Source: a virus (lineage: Duplodnaviria; Caudoviricetes). Taken from it: a stretch of DNA of 37,317 bases. The translations under genes were made by a program, and so were the position numbers. The notes below the pieces were generated by a model. That model was not told the DNA's origin. It saw only the letters and a list, made by a program, of their open reading frames with translations, and searched no databases. Of this stretch, positions 3,081 to 35,336 are shown one piece after another. Location of the stretch: positions 1-37,317 of IMG/VR virus record IMGVR_UViG_3300044723_003130; one strand, 5' to 3'. Position 1 is the first letter of the stretch; every line of letters starts with the position of its first letter.

Positions 3081-3461
3081 GAAATTTTTAATATCTTCCC
3101 AATTGTTCGCTATACTAATGTTTTTAAATTCTTCTTGAGATATACCTTTTGCTAATTTTTCTCCATCGCTTCCTTTAAATAAATAAACTTCTCTATTCTT
3201 TTTTACTAATATAAAGACTTTACCACCATAAAACTCATAAGCTTTATGCCAAGCTAATTGTTCTATAGTCAATTTAAGTTTTACTTTAGTATTTTTTCTT
3301 TTAGGTGTTTCTAAATACTTACCTTCAATCCATCCAGTGTGTCCACCATAAGTAACGTAGTGTACATCTGGTATTCCTCGTTCTATTTGAGTTTCTATTC
3401 TTTGTATAAAAAAGCCAGGAAGCTTTTCTCTAATCTGTTTCCAAAGTAGTTTTTCCATCAA
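3066..3461 (-). CDS. VRR-NUC / PD-(D/E)xK nuclease (Holliday-junction-resolvase-like)
   Basis: GIPDV...GWIEGK...EQLAWH motifs; last gene of the replication operon. Confidence 0.75.
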   Translation of the reverse strand: MMEKLLWKQIREKLPGFFIQRIETQIERGIPDVHYVTYGGHTGWIEGKYLETPKRKNTKVKLKLTIEQLAWHKAYEFYGGKVFILVKKNREVYLFKGSDGEKLAKGISQEEFKNISIANNWEDIKNFLSNN

Positions 3462-4194
3462 ACTTGCAAACAGGTATCTCTTTCATTTTATGTAAATTTC
3501 TTTTTCTTATTTCAAGATACTTTTTATATTCTGGTTCATTAGGTCTAGTCATTAAAAATTCTATTTCTTTATAACTCATACCTAATTGATCAGTGTCTGT
3601 TCTACCATCTGACCATAAACCGTCAGTTGGCTCTGCCATTTGTATATCTTCAAGTATACCAAGCTCTTTACCCATATCCCATACTTGCGTCTTAGTACAA
3701 TCAGCTATTGGAGATATATCAACACCACCATCTCCATACTTAGTAAAAAATCCTACACCAAAGTCTTCAATTTTATTTCCTGTACCTACAACTAAACCAC
3801 TTGTACTAGCTGAAATTTGATATAATGTCATCATTCTTAATCTAGCTTTTGAATTAGCAAACCCTAGAGCTTCAGTAAATTTTTTATCTGTCATTAAGTT
3901 TTCGAATGCTAAATAAGCATGAGTTAAATCTATTTCAACACCATAAGCATTTGTAAATTTAGTTGTTAACCAATTTTTATGTTTAATAGATAAATCGTGA
4001 TGCTCGGGTCTTTGTGATATAGGCATGGAAGCAACTAATGTTTTCATACCGGTCATAGCACATATAGTAGATACAACTGATGAATCAATACCACCTGATA
4101 CTCCTACTACTAAACAATTCGCAGGCTTATCCATAGATTCAACATAATCTAATATCCATTTTTTTATGTATTCAATTCTATCTTTAGCTTCCAT
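3430..4194 (-). CDS. nadE: NH3-dependent NAD+ synthetase
   Basis: VVGVSGGIDSSVV (PP-loop), ANSKARLRM, GTGNKIE, GFFTKYGDGGVD, PTDGLW. No glutaminase domain. Confidence 0.9.
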   Translation of the reverse strand: MEAKDRIEYIKKWILDYVESMDKPANCLVVGVSGGIDSSVVSTICAMTGMKTLVASMPISQRPEHHDLSIKHKNWLTTKFTNAYGVEIDLTHAYLAFENLMTDKKFTEALGFANSKARLRMMTLYQISASTSGLVVGTGNKIEDFGVGFFTKYGDGGVDISPIADCTKTQVWDMGKELGILEDIQMAEPTDGLWSDGRTDTDQLGMSYKEIEFLMTRPNEPEYKKYLEIRKRNLHKMKEIPVCKFDGKTTLETD

Positions 4195-5449
4195 GTTTTC
4201 CTATCGGTATATATTTAACACCTTCTATCGTTTCAATATACCTAAATGGATCAATAACTACATCTCCTTTTTTAAAATAGAAATGTTTCCATACTTCATG
4301 TTTAGTACCTATAAAATAAGTTTGTGGTTCTGTATCCCATTTATTGTCTTGTATAACTTTAAAAGTTTCTTCTTTGTCAACCCAAGGATCCCACATAAAT
4401 ACATCTTCACCTTTTTCTTCTAAAATATTTTTTAATAAAATACTCGGGCTACCTAAAGTTAGATTAGTTTCAGGTTTAAAACATTTACCTAAAATATTAA
4501 TTTTATTATTAATCTTATTATCAATACAAAGTTGTGCTAACCATTCTGTTTGATTTTCTCTTTGTCTCATTATATTATCATACCAATTGTATGATAAATT
4601 TAACTGTTTAGCCAAATAAGATAGAGCAATATTATCCCGAGGATGACAACCCCCACCGTCTCCCATACCTCCATATAAATACTTATCACTAATAATCCTT
4701 GTTGTGCACATAGATAAAGCTCTACTTACTTCATCAACATCAGTATTAGGTAAGTGATGGCATGTCTCCATGATTGTGTTAATTATAGAAATTTTAGTAG
4801 AAATAAATGTATTGTAAACTACTTTTATTAATTCAGCATTTTCAATTGTAGTTTTAAAAAAAGGACTAAGTGTAATTGTTCTATAAAATTTTTCTGCTTT
4901 TTTAGCAGCATCTTCATCATCTACACCAAATAAAATTATTTCACTATTTAAAAAATCGTCAATAGTTGTACCCATTGCTATAAAGAATGGATTATAACAA
5001 AGCTTTAAATGTTTTCCAAGTATTGGTTTAATATGTTTTGTAATAGTACCAGGAAGGACAGTAGATATAATAACCACAGTTTTATCTTTCCCTTGTTTTT
5101 CGATTTCTTCATTGAGTTCTTTTATTCCATTAATTAAATATTCATAATTAAAATCTTTTCGATCATCAGGTATTCTAGTTATACCTTCATACTTTTCTTC
5201 ATGTGGAGTTTGAATTGGAACAAATATTATATCAGATTCAGATACTATTTCGCTAACATTTTTTAATTCTAATTTAGAATTTTTTAGTAGTTCTTCAGCA
5301 CCTTTTTCTTTATAATTGAGTGTTTTAAATCTTATATTTCTTAAAGTTGTTTCGTTAATATCCGTACCAATAACTCTATGTCCTTTTTCTTCTATTGCAA
5401 GAGCTACAGGTAATCCTAGCTTACCTAGTCCTAAAAATCCTATATTCAT
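4184..5449 (-). CDS. UDP-glucose/GDP-mannose dehydrogenase family protein (atypical)
   Basis: GLGKLG Rossmann motif, QTP, STVLPGT, AELIKVVYN, GGGCHPRD, ILGKCFKPET. Confidence 0.88.
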   Translation of the reverse strand: MNIGFLGLGKLGLPVALAIEEKGHRVIGTDINETTLRNIRFKTLNYKEKGAEELLKNSKLELKNVSEIVSESDIIFVPIQTPHEEKYEGITRIPDDRKDFNYEYLINGIKELNEEIEKQGKDKTVVIISTVLPGTITKHIKPILGKHLKLCYNPFFIAMGTTIDDFLNSEIILFGVDDEDAAKKAEKFYRTITLSPFFKTTIENAELIKVVYNTFISTKISIINTIMETCHHLPNTDVDEVSRALSMCTTRIISDKYLYGGMGDGGGCHPRDNIALSYLAKQLNLSYNWYDNIMRQRENQTEWLAQLCIDNKINNKINILGKCFKPETNLTLGSPSILLKNILEEKGEDVFMWDPWVDKEETFKVIQDNKWDTEPQTYFIGTKHEVWKHFYFKKGDVVIDPFRYIETIEGVKYIPIGKHGS

Positions 5450-7287
5450 TTTGCTGTACCCCAGCTATCTCCTTTCTCAATGTCTACCTTTAGTGGTACT
5501 TCAAGTTTTACAGCATTTTTCATGATTTGTATAGCTTCGTCCAAACATTTTTGTTTGCCGTGTGGTACAGAAAAATCTAATTCATCGTGTATAGTAAGTT
5601 TAACATCAATCTCGTCCATTAAACCACTATCCCATATTTTTAACATTGCTGCTTTTGTAATATCAGCAGAGCTTCCTTGTATTAAAGCATTTAATCCAGT
5701 ATGTGTCATTGCTCTTTTTAATTCTTGCTTAGGATATTTTTCGTAAGCTTCTGATAATGGTACTGCTTTTTCTCCCCAACTATCTCTAGGTTCCCATAAA
5801 TCAAATCTTCTCTTACGACCTAATAAAGTTTTTATATATCCTCTACTACTAGCTACATGTGATACTTGTTTAGATAATTCTTTTACAAATGGTACTTTAG
5901 AATGATACTTATTAAAAAGATCATAAGCTGAATCTAAATCTAATCCTAACTCTGCAGCTAATTTTTTATTACCCATTCCATAAAATAATCCTAGATTAAT
6001 AGTCTTAGCTTGTTTTCTAGGTATACTTGCCATATCAGCAACCATCTGATGAAAGTCAGTATCATCTTTATTATTAAATTGATCTCTAGCTTCCATTGCA
6101 GTTTCCATCTTTTTTAAAGATGCGTAATGTACTAATACTCTAGGCTCTTGTTGAGAGTAATCTGATACAACCCATTCTGATTCTTCTTCTGGTATAAATA
6201 AACTTCTGATCATCGGACCAAGTTCAGGGTCTCTTGCGGGTACTTGCTGTAGATTAGGATAGTTAGAGCTAAATCTACCTGTAACAGTTCCGTGTGGATT
6301 AAAATTACAATAGATCCTACCATCAACAGCTTTCTCTAGAATCATATTTTTAATAAATGTATTTCTAATCTTGTCTAACTTTCTAACCGCTAAAATGCTT
6401 TTAGAGACATCATCCACTTGACTTTCAAGCCAATTTGCAGTGAAAGACGCAGTGCCTTTTTCGGTGTAATTATAACTAATCTGATTTTTATCATATGCTT
6501 GTTTTAATGAAGCATTTGCCCATACATTAACTTCATTTCCTCCAAGTCTATTTAGTCTTTGTTGCAACTCACTTTGCTTTTTTTCAAGTGTGTCAAATAG
6601 TTCTTCTGCCTTACTAATATTAATTTTTACTCCTCGCTTACGAATTTCAAATAAACAATTAATTAATCTTGATTCAAACTCAACTATGTCTCTTATCTCT
6701 TGTTTATCAATTATCTCTTGTTGTTTTTGAAATATTTGTAAAGTTAATAAAGCATCTTCTTTAGCATACTCAGATACAAAATTTGCGTGTAATTTCCATA
6801 AGCTTTCTTTTACTTTAGCACGTTTACCAAACTCAGCTAATACTGCTCTTTCTAATTCAACTTCATATTTAGATTTTCTTAAATATCTTTTAGCAAGACT
6901 ATCTAATGAATACTTTAATCTATTTTCATCTATTAAATGCTCTATTCCTTGCACATCGTAAATTCTATGACTACGAGTAAAGGCCAGTCTATTATCGTGT
7001 GAATAAAGCCACTCCATGTCATAAATAGCATTGGCAAAAACGTAAGTTTTATTGAGTTTTAACATTTTATCTAAAAAATCAATTACTTTTTCATTATCTA
7101 AATTACCGCCACCTTGATGACCTATTGGAAAATATTCATTATAACCAGTGTCAGTTGCTATAGATATTCCAACTAACTTACCATCTTTTCTAAATCCACC
7201 TGGTCCATGAGTTTTCAAACGAGGGTCGTGTGTCTCAGTATCAATAGCAATGATACTAGACTTTTCTAATTCAGTGAATCTGAACAT
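5446..7287 (-). CDS. polA: Family A DNA polymerase with 3'-5' exonuclease domain
   Basis: ExoI AIDTET, ExoII NAIYD, ExoIII YAKED; motif A DYSQQEPR, motif B RKQAKTINLGLFYG, motif C TIHDEL. Confidence 0.95.
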   Translation of the reverse strand: MFRFTELEKSSIIAIDTETHDPRLKTHGPGGFRKDGKLVGISIATDTGYNEYFPIGHQGGGNLDNEKVIDFLDKMLKLNKTYVFANAIYDMEWLYSHDNRLAFTRSHRIYDVQGIEHLIDENRLKYSLDSLAKRYLRKSKYEVELERAVLAEFGKRAKVKESLWKLHANFVSEYAKEDALLTLQIFQKQQEIIDKQEIRDIVEFESRLINCLFEIRKRGVKINISKAEELFDTLEKKQSELQQRLNRLGGNEVNVWANASLKQAYDKNQISYNYTEKGTASFTANWLESQVDDVSKSILAVRKLDKIRNTFIKNMILEKAVDGRIYCNFNPHGTVTGRFSSNYPNLQQVPARDPELGPMIRSLFIPEEESEWVVSDYSQQEPRVLVHYASLKKMETAMEARDQFNNKDDTDFHQMVADMASIPRKQAKTINLGLFYGMGNKKLAAELGLDLDSAYDLFNKYHSKVPFVKELSKQVSHVASSRGYIKTLLGRKRRFDLWEPRDSWGEKAVPLSEAYEKYPKQELKRAMTHTGLNALIQGSSADITKAAMLKIWDSGLMDEIDVKLTIHDELDFSVPHGKQKCLDEAIQIMKNAVKLEVPLKVDIEKGDSWGTAK

Positions 7288-7754
7288 CTATCTAGAATAA
7301 CTTTCTTATTTATATATGACCATGAAGCACCTCTACCCATTGCGTGTTTCATCCAATAATCGCCTAATTGATCTGCGTCTACATACTTTTCCATAAATAC
7401 TATTTTTTTAGCAGAAGTATTTAATAATAATTTTAAACAATGAATGCAAGGACTTAATGTACAGTACACTGTATCAATATCGTAGACATCTTTACATTGA
7501 AGTAATGCGTTTTGTTCAGCATGAATTGCTTCACATAAATCTAAACCTTGACCTGATTTTAATCTAGCTCCTTTACATGGATTATCTATACAGTGTTCTT
7601 GACCAGATGATACTCCATTATATCCTGTAGCTATTACATGTTTTTTTGAATTAACTAAAATACAACCTACTTTACGTCTAGCACAAGTTCCACGTTCTGA
7701 AACTAAATGCGCCATCTTTAAAAAATACCATTCGCTAGGAATTCTATATGCCAT
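7266..7754 (-). CDS. dCMP deaminase
   Basis: TCARRKVGC, TGYNG, HAEQNA (HxE) and SPCIHC (PCxxC) zinc motifs. Confidence 0.9.
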   Translation of the reverse strand: MAYRIPSEWYFLKMAHLVSERGTCARRKVGCILVNSKKHVIATGYNGVSSGQEHCIDNPCKGARLKSGQGLDLCEAIHAEQNALLQCKDVYDIDTVYCTLSPCIHCLKLLLNTSAKKIVFMEKYVDADQLGDYWMKHAMGRGASWSYINKKVILDRCSDSLN

Positions 7755-8562
7755 CTGCGTCTTTTAAAACTTTATATTTTACTTTATATCCACTATTAGC
7801 TGCACGTTCTAGATTAGGAATAAATCTATCAGATATACCGTGATATAAAGGAATTAAATCATTAAAAGAAAAATAAGGAAAATCTTCAATATTATCGCTA
7901 GTTAATATATCATCTACTTTTTTAAAATCAGTTTCGTATAAATGACGACTACCTGCTTGTATATTTAATTTACCTAATTTACAATTAATACCTCTTTCAT
8001 TTAATAGTAATGCTAAATAAAAACTTATTGCACTAAAATTAAAACTATCATAAGGTGTACCTAAATAAATATCGTTACTTCTCATTGTAGCAACTGTATG
8101 TAACCATAAAGTATCACTTGCTTTTCTTAAAAAGAATTGTAAAGAAAGAGTACAAGGAATATCTTTACTTGATCTAGGATTCTCTCTCCATATATTTAAT
8201 ACTGCTTGTCTTGTATCTTGATCTTTTTCTAAAATATCTAATACATAAGGTAATTGATCAATGATCTTAGGACCATATGCTCCAAAAAAAGTTATACCAT
8301 TATCACTAAATCTTTTAATAGCACCAGCATATTTTTCTACTGTAGCTACATCATTTTTACCTCTAAGCATCCATGCTGCTTCACCAAACATAAAATCATA
8401 ACTTAATTTTCTATCAGCAATAGTTATAATTGGATTATCCATATCAACAGTCCAACTATCATTTAATATCTCTGCTATTTTTAAACCACGAGGCTTAGTT
8501 ACAAATTCTGGTTGATGATATATAGTCCATATCTTTTTCTTATAATCTAAATTTATACTCAT
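7744..8562 (-). CDS. Thymidylate synthase superfamily enzyme, dCMP hydroxymethylase/methylase-like
   Basis: DTRQAV, catalytic Cys in DIPCTLSLQF, MRSNDIYLGTPYD with Asp at the base-specificity position, GSRHLYE. Confidence 0.82.
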   Translation of the reverse strand: MSINLDYKKKIWTIYHQPEFVTKPRGLKIAEILNDSWTVDMDNPIITIADRKLSYDFMFGEAAWMLRGKNDVATVEKYAGAIKRFSDNGITFFGAYGPKIIDQLPYVLDILEKDQDTRQAVLNIWRENPRSSKDIPCTLSLQFFLRKASDTLWLHTVATMRSNDIYLGTPYDSFNFSAISFYLALLLNERGINCKLGKLNIQAGSRHLYETDFKKVDDILTSDNIEDFPYFSFNDLIPLYHGISDRFIPNLERAANSGYKVKYKVLKDADGI

Positions 8563-9131
8563 AATCCTAAAGCAAAACTCCTATCCATAATTTTATCTGT
8601 TACTTTTTCTAAATTATCACCTTCTTGTAACATATCGTACCTAATAAAATCATTTCTTAATTTTAATGGACTTAGTTCCCATAATACATTTTCTCTATCT
8701 TCAAAACCATGCCAGTAATTATCATAAAGTTCTACTACTTTATCAATGTCATGATATTCTTCGTGTCTTTCTTCTCTATTAATTCTATGATTAGCTTTTA
8801 CTTTTTCAATATTTTCTGGTGAACACCATACATATAAAGCACCTTCTGTTTTTAGTTTATCATAAATAAATCTAGCATTATAACTAGGTCCATCACGATA
8901 GATATAAGAATAACATTGTTCGCTAGGCCAATGTCTATCCATTAAAACTAATTTACCTTCTTTTCTTTTTTTAATTGCTAATCGCATACTAGCTGTATGC
9001 CATAACTTCATATCTTTATGCACTCTTAAATGCATGTAATATGAGTTTTTAAATTCTTTTCTAAAATGATTTATTAAAGTAGTCTTACCTACTCCATCTG
9101 GTCCTTCAAATATTATTATTCTAGCATACAT
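8559..9131 (-). CDS. P-loop dNMP (thymidylate-like) kinase
   Basis: IIIFEGPDGVGKTT Walker A and LMDRHWPSEQCY (DR motif). Confidence 0.82.
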   Translation of the reverse strand: MYARIIIFEGPDGVGKTTLINHFRKEFKNSYYMHLRVHKDMKLWHTASMRLAIKKRKEGKLVLMDRHWPSEQCYSYIYRDGPSYNARFIYDKLKTEGALYVWCSPENIEKVKANHRINREERHEEYHDIDKVVELYDNYWHGFEDRENVLWELSPLKLRNDFIRYDMLQEGDNLEKVTDKIMDRSFALGL

Positions 9132-10150
9132 TTAAAAAAATCTTTCGTTCTTTCTTTACTCCAAAATTTATTATTTAAAATTTCGCTTTGACTATTAAAT
9201 ATTTCTTTTAATTCTTCTTTACTACCTTTTTCTACGATATTAGGATTTATATTTATTCCTAATACTTTAGCTTCTTCAGGGTGAGCATGTACTATACAAC
9301 CAGCATCGTGAGCCATTTTATATCTTACTCTCCACCAACCACTACCTTTAGCTGTATGATAATGTGGTGGACTTATTACACCCCATACTTTTTTATATTC
9401 ATGATACATTTCGTGTTCTTTTAATCTAGTTTGACCTTCTCTTTGATTACCAAATGTTTTTACTCTCCAGTTATAAACTTGTTTATTTAACCAACCTTGT
9501 TTACTAACTAGACTTGCACATATCCATGCATTTTCTTTTACTCTAATAATATCGTCACTACTTGTATTAAATAAATCGTGTTCAGCTTTTTTCTTATAAG
9601 AATCAGTATAAGCAGATGGATCCCAATTAACTATTTCATTTGCTTTTAAACCTAACTCATTGTAATTACCACCATCATATGCTGGTACTAATAATTTATG
9701 TGGCCATTTTTCAAATGCAAATGTATCAACTAAATCTTCAATTTCTTTTTTATAAGGTTGAGCTTCGTCCCAATATACTTTACCTACAGGATTTCCTGCT
9801 TTAGATACTTTTTTCCATATTCTCCAATGACCTCGGCTAAACGTTCCAAAACCACTTACTGAATCTTTAGTTTGCCAATCGTCAATGGAGATTATAGCAT
9901 CGGGTCTTTTAATTATGGTGTATGCCGCACCATACCAATATCTAGCTGATAGACTATTAGGACCGAATACAAATACAAAAACTTTATCATACATTGATAC
10001 ATCTTCTCCCGGGACAATTGCTTTTTGAGTTACATCGTGTCCTAGTTCTTCTAAAACTTTAGGAAGTATTCTAGCTGATGTTGCAATATTTAAAGGTGAT
10101 TTAGCTGTACCAATTGCTAAAGCATTAAATCCCGTGACCAGTATCTTCAT
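9116..10150 (-). CDS. Putative GT-B DNA glycosyltransferase, T4 beta-glucosyltransferase-like
   Basis: N-terminal MKILVTG...LPKVLEELGHDV (GT-B first strand and helix), acidic IDDW, C-terminal GWWRVRYKMAHDAGCIV in the position of the GT-B donor-binding helix; gene context. Confidence 0.55.
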   Translation of the reverse strand: MKILVTGFNALAIGTAKSPLNIATSARILPKVLEELGHDVTQKAIVPGEDVSMYDKVFVFVFGPNSLSARYWYGAAYTIIKRPDAIISIDDWQTKDSVSGFGTFSRGHWRIWKKVSKAGNPVGKVYWDEAQPYKKEIEDLVDTFAFEKWPHKLLVPAYDGGNYNELGLKANEIVNWDPSAYTDSYKKKAEHDLFNTSSDDIIRVKENAWICASLVSKQGWLNKQVYNWRVKTFGNQREGQTRLKEHEMYHEYKKVWGVISPPHYHTAKGSGWWRVRYKMAHDAGCIVHAHPEEAKVLGININPNIVEKGSKEELKEIFNSQSEILNNKFWSKERTKDFFKCMLE

Positions 10151-10580
10151 TCTGTTTCTCTCTTTCTTCGTAAATTACTTGTTCAATATCTGGAGCTTTC
10201 CAGTTTTTTGGTTTAATAACATCAAACGCTGTACCTCGTTTTTTAGATTTACTTTTAGCTCTTATCTTACTCATATTTGCTCGTTGTACTTCGTTCCATG
10301 CTTTTTCAAATGGAAGATTAAATAACCACGCTGTACCTAAAGCTATATAAACTATATCAACAAGAGCATCTAAAGCACCTGCTGCATCTTTTTTAGTAAT
10401 CGCTTGAGTGTATTCAGCTAATTCTTCCATTAAAAAAGAAGTTCTAAAATTTACTAATTCGTTATTATCAGGTATACCAACTTTTTCGTTCTTTTCAAAC
10501 TCAAATTTTTTATGAAAAGCATCAATATCTTTTATTAAAGTATCTTTATCCATATCGTCAAACATATTTACATCACTCAT
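10125..10580 (-). CDS. MazG-like / PRA-PH family nucleotide pyrophosphohydrolase
   Basis: EELAEY...DALVDIVY..WNEVQRANMSK, typical of DR2231-like all-alpha NTP-PPases. Confidence 0.8.
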   Translation of the reverse strand: MSDVNMFDDMDKDTLIKDIDAFHKKFEFEKNEKVGIPDNNELVNFRTSFLMEELAEYTQAITKKDAAGALDALVDIVYIALGTAWLFNLPFEKAWNEVQRANMSKIRAKSKSKKRGTAFDVIKPKNWKAPDIEQVIYEEREKQNEDTGHGI

Positions 10581-11638
10581 TATAGTAACGTTGCCTGTTC
10601 TGGCACCTTTCTAAAATCTATTATTTGTAATTCTTCTTCTTTTTTATTTTTTTCTTTTATACTATTTTTAACTATCCTTGCTACATATTCAGCTACAGGT
10701 GGCATTACTCCTCTAGCAATTTGTGAACCTATAGTCGAAGATGGTCCTTCCCATTTATAATCTACAGGATACCCTGCCATATAAGCTAATTCTTTATGAC
10801 CAAATAATCTATCTTCTGTAGGGTGAATATAAAATCCTCCAGCAATAACTGGTATATGAGCATTTTCTTTTAATCTCCATTTCATAAACTGAGGTCTACC
10901 TTTAACTCCTCCACGCATTCCACCTCTTACCCAAGTTTCAGGTGGATTAAATCTTTCCCATGTAACTCTTAAACTTTCACCTTGTTTACAATGTTTAAGA
11001 TAAGGTTTTTCGTTTTCTCCTAATTTCATTAAGTGACCAATGTCTGATCCATGTTCCTCTTTAAATTGTCCTAATACTTCACCAGCAGTTGGTAATGGTT
11101 GAAAGTTAAGTATATGTGGATTTAAATTATGTTTAGTTGCTATAAAGAAAAATCTTTTTCTTGAGTGATTTAATCCTGTAAACCCTCCATCAATTAATAA
11201 ATGAGTTACCTGATACCCTAAATCAATTGCTTCTTTACTTAATTCAGTTATCATAGGTCTTCCACCATTAATCGAATAAACTCTAGGTACTGATTCAATC
11301 GCAATAGCTTGTGGCTCTAACTCTTTTAATAAATTAAAACTATCTCTCCAACATTTAATTCTAGGGTCATTTCTCCATGCGCCTGCACCTTTTTGAGCTC
11401 CACCTAAATTAGACCATGGAGCACATGGTGGATTACAATATACGAAATCTATTTTATTTTTAAATTTTTTTCTAGGCCATTCATCTTCACCTTCGTAAAT
11501 TGGTAAATCTGGAAAATTAGCTTTAACTGTTTTTTTATATAAACCTGGTTTCATTTCAAAATGTGCTTGAACATCAAAATGTTTTTGTACACCTAAAGTA
11601 AAACCACCTGCAAATATATAAGTTCCTAATGCTTTCAT
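10580..11638 (-). CDS. Divergent DNA cytosine-C5 methyltransferase
   Basis: Motif I YIFAGGF, motif IV NPPC, motif VI ESV, motif VIII HSRKR, C-terminal QIARGV.PP. Confidence 0.8.
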   Translation of the reverse strand: MKALGTYIFAGGFTLGVQKHFDVQAHFEMKPGLYKKTVKANFPDLPIYEGEDEWPRKKFKNKIDFVYCNPPCAPWSNLGGAQKGAGAWRNDPRIKCWRDSFNLLKELEPQAIAIESVPRVYSINGGRPMITELSKEAIDLGYQVTHLLIDGGFTGLNHSRKRFFFIATKHNLNPHILNFQPLPTAGEVLGQFKEEHGSDIGHLMKLGENEKPYLKHCKQGESLRVTWERFNPPETWVRGGMRGGVKGRPQFMKWRLKENAHIPVIAGGFYIHPTEDRLFGHKELAYMAGYPVDYKWEGPSSTIGSQIARGVMPPVAEYVARIVKNSIKEKNKKEEELQIIDFRKVPEQATLL

Positions 11639-28325: not shown

Positions 28326-28925
28326 TTATTTAAACGGCTTACCTGTTACCCAAGTCACTAATGAATTTCTTTCTCCTTTTGTTACAGGCATAACTTCATG
28401 TAATGTATATGAAGGAAATACTATTAGTGTTCCTTGATCTTTATTCATCATAACATGATCTTCCACACCATTATCAATATAAAGTTCACCACCCTCATAT
28501 TCTTTAGGATCAGTAAGTTGAATTGAAATAGATAATTTTCTAATTGGAAAACCGAATCCTTTATCAACGTGTCTATTATATTTTCCTGATGGTGCTTTAT
28601 AATTTGTAAATTGTAATCCTTCATTAATTCCAGATAAATCAAAATTAAAAAAAAGTTTATTAATCTCTAATGTAATGTCTGTTATTCTACGAAACACCCA
28701 TTCCATATTGTCACCAGGATGTAGCCAACATATTTTAGAATCTCTAATATTATTTAATTTTTTATCTTGATTATCTTTTCTTACCAAAGCATCATTTAAA
28801 CCTTTGATTTTAGCAAGTTTAATTATTACTTCACAGTCCTCTTTTGTAAATGCGTTTTCATAAAAAGCATAACTATGAATTTTATCTAAATAAAAATCCC
28901 AAGATGAGTTTGTTATTTTTTCCAT
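28326..28925 (-). CDS. 2OG-Fe(II) oxygenase (prolyl-4-hydroxylase-like)
   Basis: LQFTNY, HVD, RKLSISIQL, YEGGEL, FPSYTLHEV.PVTKGERNSLV.W. Confidence 0.88.
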   Translation of the reverse strand: MEKITNSSWDFYLDKIHSYAFYENAFTKEDCEVIIKLAKIKGLNDALVRKDNQDKKLNNIRDSKICWLHPGDNMEWVFRRITDITLEINKLFFNFDLSGINEGLQFTNYKAPSGKYNRHVDKGFGFPIRKLSISIQLTDPKEYEGGELYIDNGVEDHVMMNKDQGTLIVFPSYTLHEVMPVTKGERNSLVTWVTGKPFK

Positions 28926-28936
28926 AATTCATTTAA

Positions 28937-29449
28937 TTAAAAATAGTTAAAATTTATTATATATCTAAAATCAGCATTATTAGATGTTACTCCTCTATGT
29001 TCAATATTAGAATCAAATATAACAATTTTATTTTCTTCTGATTTAATAAATTTTATTTCATTATTTATTTTAAATTCAGTTCCTCCATCACAATTGTTTA
29101 AATATAATATTGCAGTTTTACAATTAAAATTATTGTCTATATGAAAATCAGAATGTTTATTTTTAAAAAAAACAGAAGGGGTTAAATTTGATCTTACTTC
29201 TATTACAGCTTTTGAATTTAATTTATCTAAAATTGGGATTATATATTTAAAATACGTATCACAATTTATTCTATTATCATTATAGAAAGAATGTGTAAAA
29301 TAACCTAAGTTATTTGAGGTTCCTCCAACCATAGTTTTCCTCTGATACCAAGCAAACTCTGATTTTGTTACAAGTTTTTTTAAATCTTGAAAAAAAGAAT
29401 TTTCAAGAAAATTTTTTATTACTTTTACGTTTTTTGTTGGTTGATGCAT
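28937..29449 (-). CDS. 2OG-Fe(II) oxygenase
   Basis: FHID, TAILYLN..DGGT, HRG, RYIINFNYF. Confidence 0.8.
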   Translation of the reverse strand: MHQPTKNVKVIKNFLENSFFQDLKKLVTKSEFAWYQRKTMVGGTSNNLGYFTHSFYNDNRINCDTYFKYIIPILDKLNSKAVIEVRSNLTPSVFFKNKHSDFHIDNNFNCKTAILYLNNCDGGTEFKINNEIKFIKSEENKIVIFDSNIEHRGVTSNNADFRYIINFNYF

Positions 29450-29451
29450 AA

Positions 29452-30090
29452 TTATTCCTTATTTAAATATATATTTAGTACAATTGTAATTCTTGTTTTG
29501 TCTGAAGTTTGCATAGGTACATAGTGATGTAAAAAAGAAGGAGTAATACAAAAACAATTTTCTTCAATATTAAAATTCCAATAATCCATAACCCAAGAAT
29601 TATTTGGATCACTTGAATCTAATAAATTTAAAAGTTCCGGTCTTAAATATTTTAAATAACCAACATAAGTGTTTTTATTTTCAAATACTGTTGGTTTATG
29701 TTCTTCTTTATCAAATTTTAAATAATGTACAGCTGTAAAATCCGCACCGTCGTGATAATGAGATTGCATATTTTGATTAGATTTCATACAAGTATAATTA
29801 ACAATTTTAAAATTATATTTAATTTTTTGACTAAATTTTAAATTGTTTAAGTAAAGTTCAATATCATTTTTATACAAAGGTATTAATGTTTTATAATTTA
29901 TATCTTTAAATTTTTTGTTATTTAAATCTTTATTACTGTGATGTAAATTTGAGTTTTTGGTATCCCATTTATTTCTATTAGCGTCTATTTTATAATTATA
30001 TTCAATGTCTCTGATAATTTTTTTCTTATCAAAGTTATTAGAGTTAATTTTTGTTATTAATGTAGGAAAACTAAAGAGGTTTACTATCAT
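29452..30090 (-). CDS. Putative 2OG-Fe(II) oxygenase (HxH type)
   Basis: SHYH...FTAVHYL...PSFLHHYVP...RITIVLN. Confidence 0.72.
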   Translation of the reverse strand: MIVNLFSFPTLITKINSNNFDKKKIIRDIEYNYKIDANRNKWDTKNSNLHHSNKDLNNKKFKDINYKTLIPLYKNDIELYLNNLKFSQKIKYNFKIVNYTCMKSNQNMQSHYHDGADFTAVHYLKFDKEEHKPTVFENKNTYVGYLKYLRPELLNLLDSSDPNNSWVMDYWNFNIEENCFCITPSFLHHYVPMQTSDKTRITIVLNIYLNKE

Positions 30091-33886: not shown

Positions 33887-34549
33887 TTATTGTCCTCCAG
33901 TTAATGTGTTTTCGCCTAGTGGACTACCTGGAAACTTGTAGTCAGTTCTTCTGTTTCTACGAGCTTCGTTATTAATAGCAGCCACACTTTCGACATACTT
34001 TTGTTTGTATATATTATAGTCTTCCATGTTCTTTGTAAAGAGATTTGCTTCAGATAAACAACCAAATAAAAGAGCATCAGAAGCATTTTCAGTATACCAA
34101 TTAGTAGTGTTAGTATTAGATAATGGATTAATTCTTCCTTGATAACCTAACTCCATAGTATATACAGCATCTGGTGTTGGAGCTAAATATAATGTGGTAT
34201 CATCAAAATTAGCAAAATATCTAGGTTGTGCTGTTAAGGAAGCATCAGGCCAATATTCTTGTAAATATTCTAATGGTTTAATTTCTAAAAATACTCTATT
34301 ACCTGAGCTGTCTATTATATTTAAATAATTTAAAAGCATAGGTTCAATTGCTGATGGAAGAGTTATAAATCTATCTCCTATAGAAGTAGATGAAGTTACA
34401 TTTTCATTAAAACCTGTAGGATCAATTTCTCTAGATAATTTTAATTGAGTATTATCAATAAAAGTATCTAATTGAGCTACAAAATCAGTTCCTGTATTTT
34501 CTGCCCAAGTTTGTATATCAGTCTTTAGACTGCTGTATGTCATTGGCAT
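33887..34549 (-). CDS. Head-tail adaptor / tail tubular-like protein
   Basis: MTYSSLKTDIQ.W, PRYFA, LAPTPDA.Y, ALLFGCL.EA; position in the module. Confidence 0.65.
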   Translation of the reverse strand: MPMTYSSLKTDIQTWAENTGTDFVAQLDTFIDNTQLKLSREIDPTGFNENVTSSTSIGDRFITLPSAIEPMLLNYLNIIDSSGNRVFLEIKPLEYLQEYWPDASLTAQPRYFANFDDTTLYLAPTPDAVYTMELGYQGRINPLSNTNTTNWYTENASDALLFGCLSEANLFTKNMEDYNIYKQKYVESVAAINNEARRNRRTDYKFPGSPLGENTLTGGQ

Positions 34550-35336
34550 TGTTTTCTACTCCTTCAACTTTAAACTTAGTCCATACATGACCTCTAAATG
34601 CATATGTACCATAATGCGTAAGAGGACTATGTAAATCAGCATATATCTTTCCACCGATTTTTTGCCATAATCTGCAAAAAGCATAATCTTCTGATAAATA
34701 TCTATTACTTTTTTCATCAATAATACAGTCAAAAAGTGCATAACAATTGTCACTTGAAAATCTATCTCCATTTATTATTTGATCAGATGTATATTTAAGA
34801 TTAGGATAAGCTTCTATCATTTTATAAAATACTTCTTTTTTAATACACATAAAGCCTGTCGCTGCATCTAATACTTCAGTAAATCCATTTTTAACTTCTA
34901 TATTTAAAGGATTTGCAAAATTTAAATTATATCCTAAAGCTTTTTGTTCTAAATTTTCATAATCTTTTTTTTCAGCATGAGATTTAACAGTATTCCAATC
35001 TATAGATTTTCTAGGGTATATTCCACAAGCTACATCGTAATCACTTTCTAATAATCTCATTATAGCTTCTCCACCAAAACCTATATCGCTATCTATAAAC
35101 ATTAAATGTGTAAATCTATTCGGATCTTTTTTATCAGCATCTAAAAATTGAGTTACTAAAGTATTTCTAGCTCTAGTAATTAAACTTTCATTACCCATAG
35201 TATTTAAATGTAACTGTATTCCTCTTTTACCAGCCTCAGTTACAGCATTTAAAATACCGTGTAAATATGATTCTGTTAATTGACCGCCATAACAAGGAGT
35301 TGCGATCATAACTCCTAATTTTTTTTGATTTGTCAT
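34518..35336 (-). CDS. GT-A (family 2-like) glycosyltransferase in the structural module
   Basis: IATPCYGG, NESLITRARN, HLMFIDSD (DxD), ATGFM, YLSEDYAFC, LTHYG. Confidence 0.78.
   Translation of the reverse strand: MTNQKKLGVMIATPCYGGQLTESYLHGILNAVTEAGKRGIQLHLNTMGNESLITRARNTLVTQFLDADKKDPNRFTHLMFIDSDIGFGGEAIMRLLESDYDVACGIYPRKSIDWNTVKSHAEKKDYENLEQKALGYNLNFANPLNIEVKNGFTEVLDAATGFMCIKKEVFYKMIEAYPNLKYTSDQIINGDRFSSDNCYALFDCIIDEKSNRYLSEDYAFCRLWQKIGGKIYADLHSPLTHYGTYAFRGHVWTKFKVEGVENNANDIQQSKD

Follow-up and report, generated by a model that had tools for sequence, protein, structure and literature searches.

An IMG/VR record of an uncultured phage, IMGVR_UViG_3300044723_003130 (37,317 bases, G+C ~30%; this entire record is called the window here), carries at 3430-11638 a cassette of nine genes around polA that is likely a variant of the T4-type sugar camouflage against bacterial nucleases, with 5-hydroxymethylcytosine (hmC) as the predicted base and a sugar acid as its likely decoration. 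We are confident of the core of this prediction, namely hmC plus a glycosyltransferase (GT) acting on it. The whole reading, in which the phage DNA would carry a uronic acid on hmC without amidation, stands in our judgement a little short of an even chance. All nine open reading frames (ORFs) are intact, lie on the minus strand in the order given by an initial annotation of the sequence, and overlap their neighbours by 1-26 nt. Family assignments with Pfam, PHROGs, and NCBIfam agreed with those proposed there, with the GT-B assignment coming from structure prediction and search.

The identity of the base is indicated by the thymidylate synthase (TS)-family enzyme encoded at 7744-8562 (Thymidylat_synt, E 2e-17), whose residues D134, C137, D164, and D172 correspond to ThyA positions 143, 146, 169, and 177. 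In this family, Asp177 marks enzymes that act on cytosine, an acidic residue at 143 marks those whose product bears a hydroxyl, and Asn169 is the mark of hydroxylases (PMC13326640). By alignment, residues 143/169/177 of the window enzyme are D/D/D, as in T4 gp42, compared with E/N/D in RB69 gp48 and D/D/N in M6 gp58. The catalytic Cys146, Asp177, and acidic residue 143 of a T4 gp42/MilA-type dCMP hydroxymethylase are thus all present (C137, D172, and D134). Among solved structures the best match was the CMP hydroxymethylase MilA (E 6e-20), with the best ThyA at E 1.5e-8. Because the residues match T4 gp42 and MilA is the best solved match, the modified base is predicted to be most likely hmC, rather than 5-hydroxymethyluracil (hmU) or 5-hydroxycytosine. 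A 5-hydroxy-dCMP synthase of the RB69 gp48 type was rejected, since it needs Asn169 where the window enzyme has D164, as was direct hydroxymethylation of dUMP to hmU (M6/SPO1 type), which needs Asn177 where the window enzyme has D172. The glycosylated hydroxymethyl-pyrimidine proposed by the initial annotation is therefore supported and narrowed to cytosine.

The nearest TS relatives in cultured phages are those of HTVC119P and HTVC200P (about 48% identity) and AXL3 (42%). The AXL3 enzyme has the same signature, and its gene adjoins those for a kinase, a pyrophosphatase, and a deaminase. Only 2 of 37 restriction enzymes cut AXL3 DNA, both A/T-only (PMC7504290). This resistance may serve as supporting context only for an hmC base. 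AXL3 (locus L007, 4611-8645) and two further loci (L009 and L010) share a GT-less cassette consisting of a class I methyltransferase, the pyrophosphatase, the kinase, a dCMP-hydroxymethylase-type TS, and the deaminase. The T7-like pelagiphage HTVC119P (L008, 6442-7726) has the kinase and a TS with the dCMP-hydroxymethylase signature and no GT nearby, making it a cultured candidate for plain hmC DNA. In another contig (L464, 11839-13389) the TS homologue is split just after the catalytic Cys by a large insertion that is intein-like by position and ends.

The GT (9116-10150) matched no Pfam family, BGT included, and fell into PHROG 14998, to which no function is assigned. A model built from 25 sequences (pLDDT 85) predicted a GT-B enzyme with the fold of T4 beta-glucosyltransferase (BGT): T4 BGT ranked first both in Foldseek (E 1.2e-6, TM 0.56) and in VIA (Z 16.2, rmsd 3.7, 276 aligned). 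A DNA-glycosylating role is likely because of gene context, with a TS present at all 28 distant loci that carry a GT of 26-33% identity and the dNMP kinase gene beside GT and TS at 26 of them. Aeromonas phages AS-gz and 60AhydR15PP likewise have this GT plus a gp42 of 56% identity. The sugar enzyme beside the GT differs by lineage. UDP-galactopyranose mutase adjoins it in Aes508, FBB1, DSL-LC01, and C48C1; arabinose-5-phosphate isomerase overlaps the GT match in Morganella phage Rgz1; and a UDP-xylose synthase (E 6e-90 to human UXS) lies near it at 12 of 16 loci of the sister clade and in L069. Within the GT flank examined, no sugar-nucleotide enzyme was annotated in Gordonia phage BlueNGold or in one Manatee Spring record. 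In the cultured phage C48C1 (L001, 7586-11033) the GT-family gene stands in a row between genes for a TET/JBP dioxygenase and the mutase, all annotated as hypothetical, and the predicted product is a galactofuranosyl-hydroxymethylpyrimidine. The clade-specific basic GT residues R27, R70, K231, and K244 could bind a carboxylate and are offered as a lead only.

The gene at 4184-5449 is predicted to encode a nucleoside diphosphate (NDP)-sugar 6-dehydrogenase that would make the NDP-uronic acid donor. It scored 212 bits against TIGR03026 (cut-off 189.8), matched all three domains, and has an intact Rossmann motif and catalytic Lys/Asn and Cys. We surveyed 33 close loci, 24 of them reaching past polA, and 16 sister loci, 14 of them reaching that far (near-copies included). 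The dehydrogenase was present at all 24 close loci, 21 of which also had NadE, compared with 0 of 14 sister loci for either gene; among 77 polA relatives without the GT (30 of which span the full interval), none had either gene. A whole-record search, in which the positive control was found, detected no dehydrogenase in four near-complete sister genomes or five near-complete GT-less relatives. Because the dehydrogenase occurs in every close cassette, a UDP-xylose synthase takes its place in the sister clade, and GT neighbours vary by phage, a uronic-acid donor is the most likely reading of the sugar, in keeping with the oxidised sugar suggested by the initial annotation. The co-occurrence of dehydrogenase and nadE with the TS and GT genes, which that annotation put forward as a check, holds within this phage lineage; across viruses at large, both occur apart from TS and GT, an outcome that the annotation itself had counted against its proposal.

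The host is inferred to be SAR11-like because the window primase resembles that of an HTVC023P-type pelagiphage (34% identity) and the window NadE is nearest to SAR11 copies. A UDP-glucose dehydrogenase is present in 5 of 5 SAR11 genomes, and a sister-clade-type query found no close UDP-xylose synthase in the same five. This fits a scheme in which the sister clade makes xylose from host UDP-glucuronate, and the window clade uses a uronic acid directly, perhaps that of a different sugar.

Next to the dehydrogenase, nadE (3430-4194) encodes an ammonia-dependent NAD synthetase of the SAR11 type, an optional member of the cassette (NAD_synthase, E 3e-46; TIGR00552, 160 bits versus 63.65). The protein is 58-66% identical to SAR11 copies (59% to a housekeeping copy), whose housekeeping context is fixed, with aroG-like and cysS-like genes on either side. 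It retains both the SGGxDS loop and the conserved motifs of the substrate site. At 21 of 24 close loci NadE comes straight after the dehydrogenase, and no close locus had NadE alone; the three cassettes lacking NadE all belong to one subclade, in records that are 39-57% complete. Outside the cassette, 14 of 33 distinct viral NadE cases have a dehydrogenase as immediate neighbour and 2 of 33 an epimerase; none of 80 cellular NadE loci has a dehydrogenase within 6 kb. Conversely, of 38 distinct viral dehydrogenase loci outside the cassette, 20 have the pair, and the cultured viruses HTVC008M, Bellamy, S-SSM7, and P-TIM68 have it in glycan islands. In a tree using 52 of 150 sequences, the cassette NadE clade (100/96) joined the SAR11 copies (92/56, weak) and was separated by a 99/96 branch from the dehydrogenase-linked NadEs of other viruses. 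Because the two viral sets fall on opposite sides of this branch, the dehydrogenase-NadE pairing arose at least twice. We regard the functional link between the two genes as real. A setting different from that of the dehydrogenase-linked copies is seen at L383 (4921-8447), where a viral nadE lies in an apparent NAD salvage cluster and its neighbours, judged by eye, resemble genes for nicotinate phosphoribosyltransferase and nicotinamidase.

By sequence, the cassette NadE is an NAD synthetase. Eighty-three columns are conserved in 79 cellular copies, and eight of these drop below 80% in a viral group, mostly through conservative changes. The sole column that is wholly replaced is Glu201, in 23 of 23 cassette copies. 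Glu201 is also replaced in 3 of 23 SAR11 copies, of which two lie at the housekeeping locus, and is kept in all 35 other dehydrogenase-linked viral copies. Since those three SAR11 copies share its loss, it is an ambiguous mark of a new function. Supplying NAD+ to the dehydrogenase is a simpler reading than amidation. The initial annotation's proposal that NadE makes a uronamide is thus weakly supported: the repeated pairing with dehydrogenases speaks for it, and the SAR11-type, dispensable nature of this NAD synthetase speaks against it.

The gene at 10580-11638 encodes a protein of C5-methyltransferase fold (DNA_methylase, E 1e-26; model pLDDT 93) that keeps the catalytic Cys72, has ESV as motif VI, and has Arg309 in place of Asn in motif X. 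ESV occurs in 117 of 120 homologues, and position 309 is R in 63, Q in 30, and K in 21 of them, with Asn not among the four commonest states. We therefore rejected a canonical S-adenosylmethionine (SAM)-dependent C5 DNA methyltransferase, which has ENV in motif VI and Asn in motif X. Its initial designation as a C5-methyltransferase missed its divergent, hmC-linked nature. Of 31 distant loci of this family (a few being near-copies or the same contig again), 26 have a TS no more than 9 kb away, all with Asp177, and four of the five loci without TS end early. The gene is fused to the GT in three contigs, yet this GT is present at just 5 of the 31 loci, so that the family tracks TS rather than GT. 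In the fusions (L063, 8039-11005; L064, 8399-11011; L069, 8534-11017) the two parts are joined by a conserved helical middle domain of ~60 residues, which also matches GT-containing ORFs of L065 and L066. In many xylose-synthase cassettes of the sister clade (e.g., L044, 7902-8570), a small class I methyltransferase with a weak CmoB-like match directly precedes the methylase-like gene. From this association we assign the methylase-like enzyme a putative role as an hmC-pathway partner. Arg is found in motif X of some ordinary SAM-using enzymes as well, DNMT3A among them, so the enzyme may simply methylate cytosines left unreplaced.

The remaining genes would complete a pathway, each step of which we infer from sequence, fold, and gene neighbourhood. 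In it, dCMP would be turned by the TS-family enzyme into hydroxymethyl-dCMP (hm-dCMP), which the dNMP kinase (8559-9131; thymidylate kinase, E 1e-7) and host kinases would raise to hm-dCTP. A MazG-like, all-alpha NTP pyrophosphatase (10125-10580; PRA-PH/MazG, E 4e-13; best solved relative DR2231, E 7e-5) is predicted to reduce dCTP and dUTP, and a dCMP deaminase (7266-7754; E 8e-22) may provide dUMP for host dTMP synthesis and so sustain the dTMP supply. PolA, a family A DNA polymerase with a 3'-5' exonuclease (5446-7287; DNA_pol_A, E 4e-72), would then build hmC into phage DNA. The dehydrogenase would oxidise an NDP-hexose to the NDP-hexuronate, from which the T4-BGT-like GT would place a uronic acid on the hydroxymethyl group and so protect the DNA against nucleases. 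NadE, most likely a true NAD synthetase acquired from a SAR11-like cell, would back the NAD+-dependent dehydrogenase, and the methylase-like enzyme would be a dedicated partner of the hmC step that most simply caps cytosines escaping replacement.

A number of observations weigh against this scheme. In VIA, glycogen synthase, SenB, and T4 AGT scored less than 1 Z below T4 BGT, so that its lead over GT-B enzymes not acting on DNA amounts to a tie, and the profile comparison of the GT with T4 BGT was weak (hhalign probability 10.8%, N-terminal 59 columns only). The dehydrogenase scored equally against GDP-mannose and UDP-glucose dehydrogenases (E 5e-29 each), so the scores do not single out a sugar, and all specific NCBIfam dehydrogenase models fell below cut-off. 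The 24 close cassettes that have it count as one event, since on the PolA tree they go back to a single gain on one branch. Members of its subfamily (51-65% identity) are frequent in viral glycan islands, where none of 38 distinct proteins has a TS, kinase, or GT of this kind in its locus and the neighbours are genes for GT2, GT11, GT47, and GT90 and for carbamoyl-, acetyl-, and aminotransferases. In one distant phage that carries the GT, the dehydrogenase lying among the structural genes is a different one (27% identity). The UDP-glucose dehydrogenase already encoded by the five SAR11 genomes leaves the need for a phage copy unexplained. A lone NadE adds little NAD+, and a dehydrogenase recycles NAD+ rather than consuming it. 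Finally, a cytosine-acting methylase-like enzyme implies incomplete replacement by hmC. The window also has a second GT-like gene (34518-35336; PHROG 1574) among its structural genes, likely for virion glycosylation, which could use the dehydrogenase's donor.

Some of these points suit a neutral sugar on hmC, made from host UDP-glucose or as xylose via a host synthase, with dehydrogenase and NadE forming a mobile pair for virion or host-surface glycans. We consider this doubtful, although it is the rival with most in its favour. It would account for the pair in the glycan islands of the cultured viruses named above and others, for the second GT-like gene, and for the many distant GT loci without a nearby sugar enzyme (0 dehydrogenases and 1 epimerase-type gene in 28). 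However, the pair belongs to the replication operon and the second GT-like gene is 29 kb away; a sister genome without dehydrogenase also has a relative of this second gene. In its own copy of the operon the sister clade has, instead of the dehydrogenase, a different enzyme acting in UDP-glucuronate metabolism, and the five SAR11 genomes yielded no close xylose synthase. A uronamide on hmC, for which NadE would amidate the sugar acid, either as NDP-uronic acid or once on DNA, neutralise its charge, and leave the GT to install the amide, is rather improbable. In its favour are the usual position of NadE directly after the dehydrogenase, the preference of viral but not cellular NadE for such neighbours, the separate origins of the pairing, and the loss of Glu201. 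Against it, that is the only one of the 83 columns fully replaced, SAR11 copies share the change, the other dehydrogenase-linked viral NadEs lack it, and NadE was lost from three loci without a matching GT change: the only GT positions that tracked the loss were two variable, surface-type ones, neither convincing. To our knowledge, known uronamide synthases are asparagine-synthetase-like and not NadE. A wider version, in which a barely altered NadE moonlights as a sugar-acid amidase and the methylase-fold enzyme performs an undescribed base reaction, is also unlikely, if marginally less so; if true, it would explain the recurrent dehydrogenase-NadE pairing across viral glycan islands.

It is very unlikely that the methylase-like enzyme carboxymethylates DNA cytosine, with NadE amidating the carboxyl or the cofactor and hm-dCMP perhaps being deaminated to hm-dUMP, so that the sugar sits on hmU. 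The Arg in motif X is the defining change of the carboxymethyltransferase CmoX (PMC12783734), and this scheme would explain a cytosine-acting enzyme and a dCMP deaminase alongside the TS. The window enzyme has R309 and reads NPPC where CmoX has SPPC; the motif X position is not strictly basic among the homologues; CmoA was not found in 10 related phage records (five at least 90% complete), and none scored above cut-off in five SAR11 genomes. Moreover, the methylase-like family is present without NadE in the sister clade, and the AXL3 restriction data indicate C/G rather than T. Least probable is that these are ordinary nucleotide and cofactor supply genes of a phage with canonical or merely methylated DNA. 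Together, deaminase, TS, kinase, and pyrophosphatase do also form a route to dTTP, and a search of five related records revealed no ThyX, so the TS could be the sole phage thymidylate enzyme. The D177 and D143 signature, the MilA match, the T4-BGT fold, and the fixed GT-kinase-TS grouping all argue otherwise. Uronic acid on hmC, without amidation, is the reading we favour.

The window is an incomplete genome (related records are 56-64 kb), whose right part holds structural genes and whose left part is occupied by a long replication operon on the minus strand; no capsid or terminase gene was identified. The absence of intergenic gaps, which the initial annotation had emphasised for the nine genes, is real but not special to them. 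Because every junction from 17407 to 3066 overlaps or abuts by ORF coordinates, gap-free packing marks the whole replication operon, and we rejected it as evidence of a unit. For PolA, DpoZ was the top NCBIfam score yet remained below cut-off (342 of 500), and this identity was also rejected; no PurZ was seen. PolA has Leu at the position that we take to be E. coli 762. The tetramer CGCG is absent from the window (0 observed, 6.9 expected) and rare in the two clades (1/37 and 1/66). We rejected this depletion as a footprint of the cassette methylase: HTVC008M and several cassette-free relatives are also depleted, and distant phages with the same methylase family are not (ratio 0.99). SAR11 loci have a ratio of 0.44. 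CGCG avoidance is likely host-related. Marine CGCG methylation is reported elsewhere (PMC9516812). A class I methyltransferase gene directly follows nadE in a 97-98% identical relative (L091, 3623-4339) and in another contig (L020, 16685-17425), and NDP-sugar epimerases are inserted after a VRR-Nuc-like gene in L022, L041, and L057; the spot after nadE or the VRR-Nuc-like gene behaves as a variable sugar-tailoring slot. In the tail region, three small tandem genes (28326-30090), two with 2-oxoglutarate-Fe(II) oxygenase Pfam matches, occupy a slot that varies in relatives (L393).

If correct, our reading describes how phages of what are likely the ocean's most abundant bacteria place an acidic sugar on cytosine by a natural, pre-replicative pathway, and a family of DNA GTs whose sugar (uronate, xylose, or galactofuranose) could be read from the neighbouring gene. 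It would also offer a small, testable enzyme set for DNA labelling and for the study of modification-dependent nucleases, and would open two puzzles to experiment: why viral NadE recurs next to sugar dehydrogenases, and what role the hmC-linked methylase-like family has.

In the literature searched, in which subscription journals were thinly covered, we found no uronamide phage base and no dehydrogenase-NadE-GT cassette; supplements to the work of Pyle et al. may list such contigs. In the text available to us, a survey of pelagiphages refers to thymine hypermodification by a TS-based route and to a putative glucosyltransferase, and the word 'dehydrogenase' is absent (PMC9599517). The SAR11 housekeeping NadE forms the weakly joined sister clade of the cassette copies, which keep its substrate motifs; the window nadE, however, follows a sugar dehydrogenase rather than lying between aroG-like and cysS-like genes. 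CmoX of Synechococcus phage S-B43 (PDB 8YF3; PMC12783734) shares with the methylase-like enzyme the C5-methyltransferase fold, the catalytic Cys, and the motif X Arg, whereas the window enzyme has NPPC and ESV rather than SPPC/ENV-type motifs, is 18% identical, and is linked to a dCMP hydroxymethylase; the CmoA and CmoY partners were not found. The phages RB69, DLP3, and RL38J1 (PMC13326640) make glycosyl-5-hydroxycytosine with a similar kinase-GT-TS trio and a phage-made sugar nucleotide, but their TS has Asn169 where the window TS has Asp.

The initial annotation knew of no described phage base of this kind, a view that the literature does not support. The DNA of SP-15 contains phosphoglucuronate, and its modification cluster includes a UDP-glucose dehydrogenase (PMC5977210). 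This Bacillus phage thus resembles the window in having a uronic acid on its DNA and a dehydrogenase in the cluster; it differs in that its base, phosphoglucuronate-dihydroxypentyluracil, is a thymine derivative with a phosphodiester-linked sugar added by unrelated transferases. Two metagenomic phage GTs (contigs 57 and 91) produced HexA-hmC (433 atomic mass units) in E. coli (Pyle et al., bioRxiv 10.1101/2023.12.21.572611), and the predicted product of the window is likewise a hexuronic acid on hmC. There, hmC arises after replication through a methylase and TET, with an epimerase as partner, whereas the window would use a pre-replicative TS route and a dehydrogenase; that paper names GT53, GT66, and GT94 alone as GT-B, the fold of the window GT. 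In the glucosyl-hmC pathway of T4 (gp42, gp1, gp56, cd, and beta-gt), the TS signature residues, dNMP kinase, NTP pyrophosphatase, dCMP deaminase, and BGT-fold GT all have counterparts in the window. Yet the window phage is a PolA podophage and not T4-like, its GT is about 16% identical to BGT, and it adds its own NDP-sugar dehydrogenase, NadE, and methylase-like partner.

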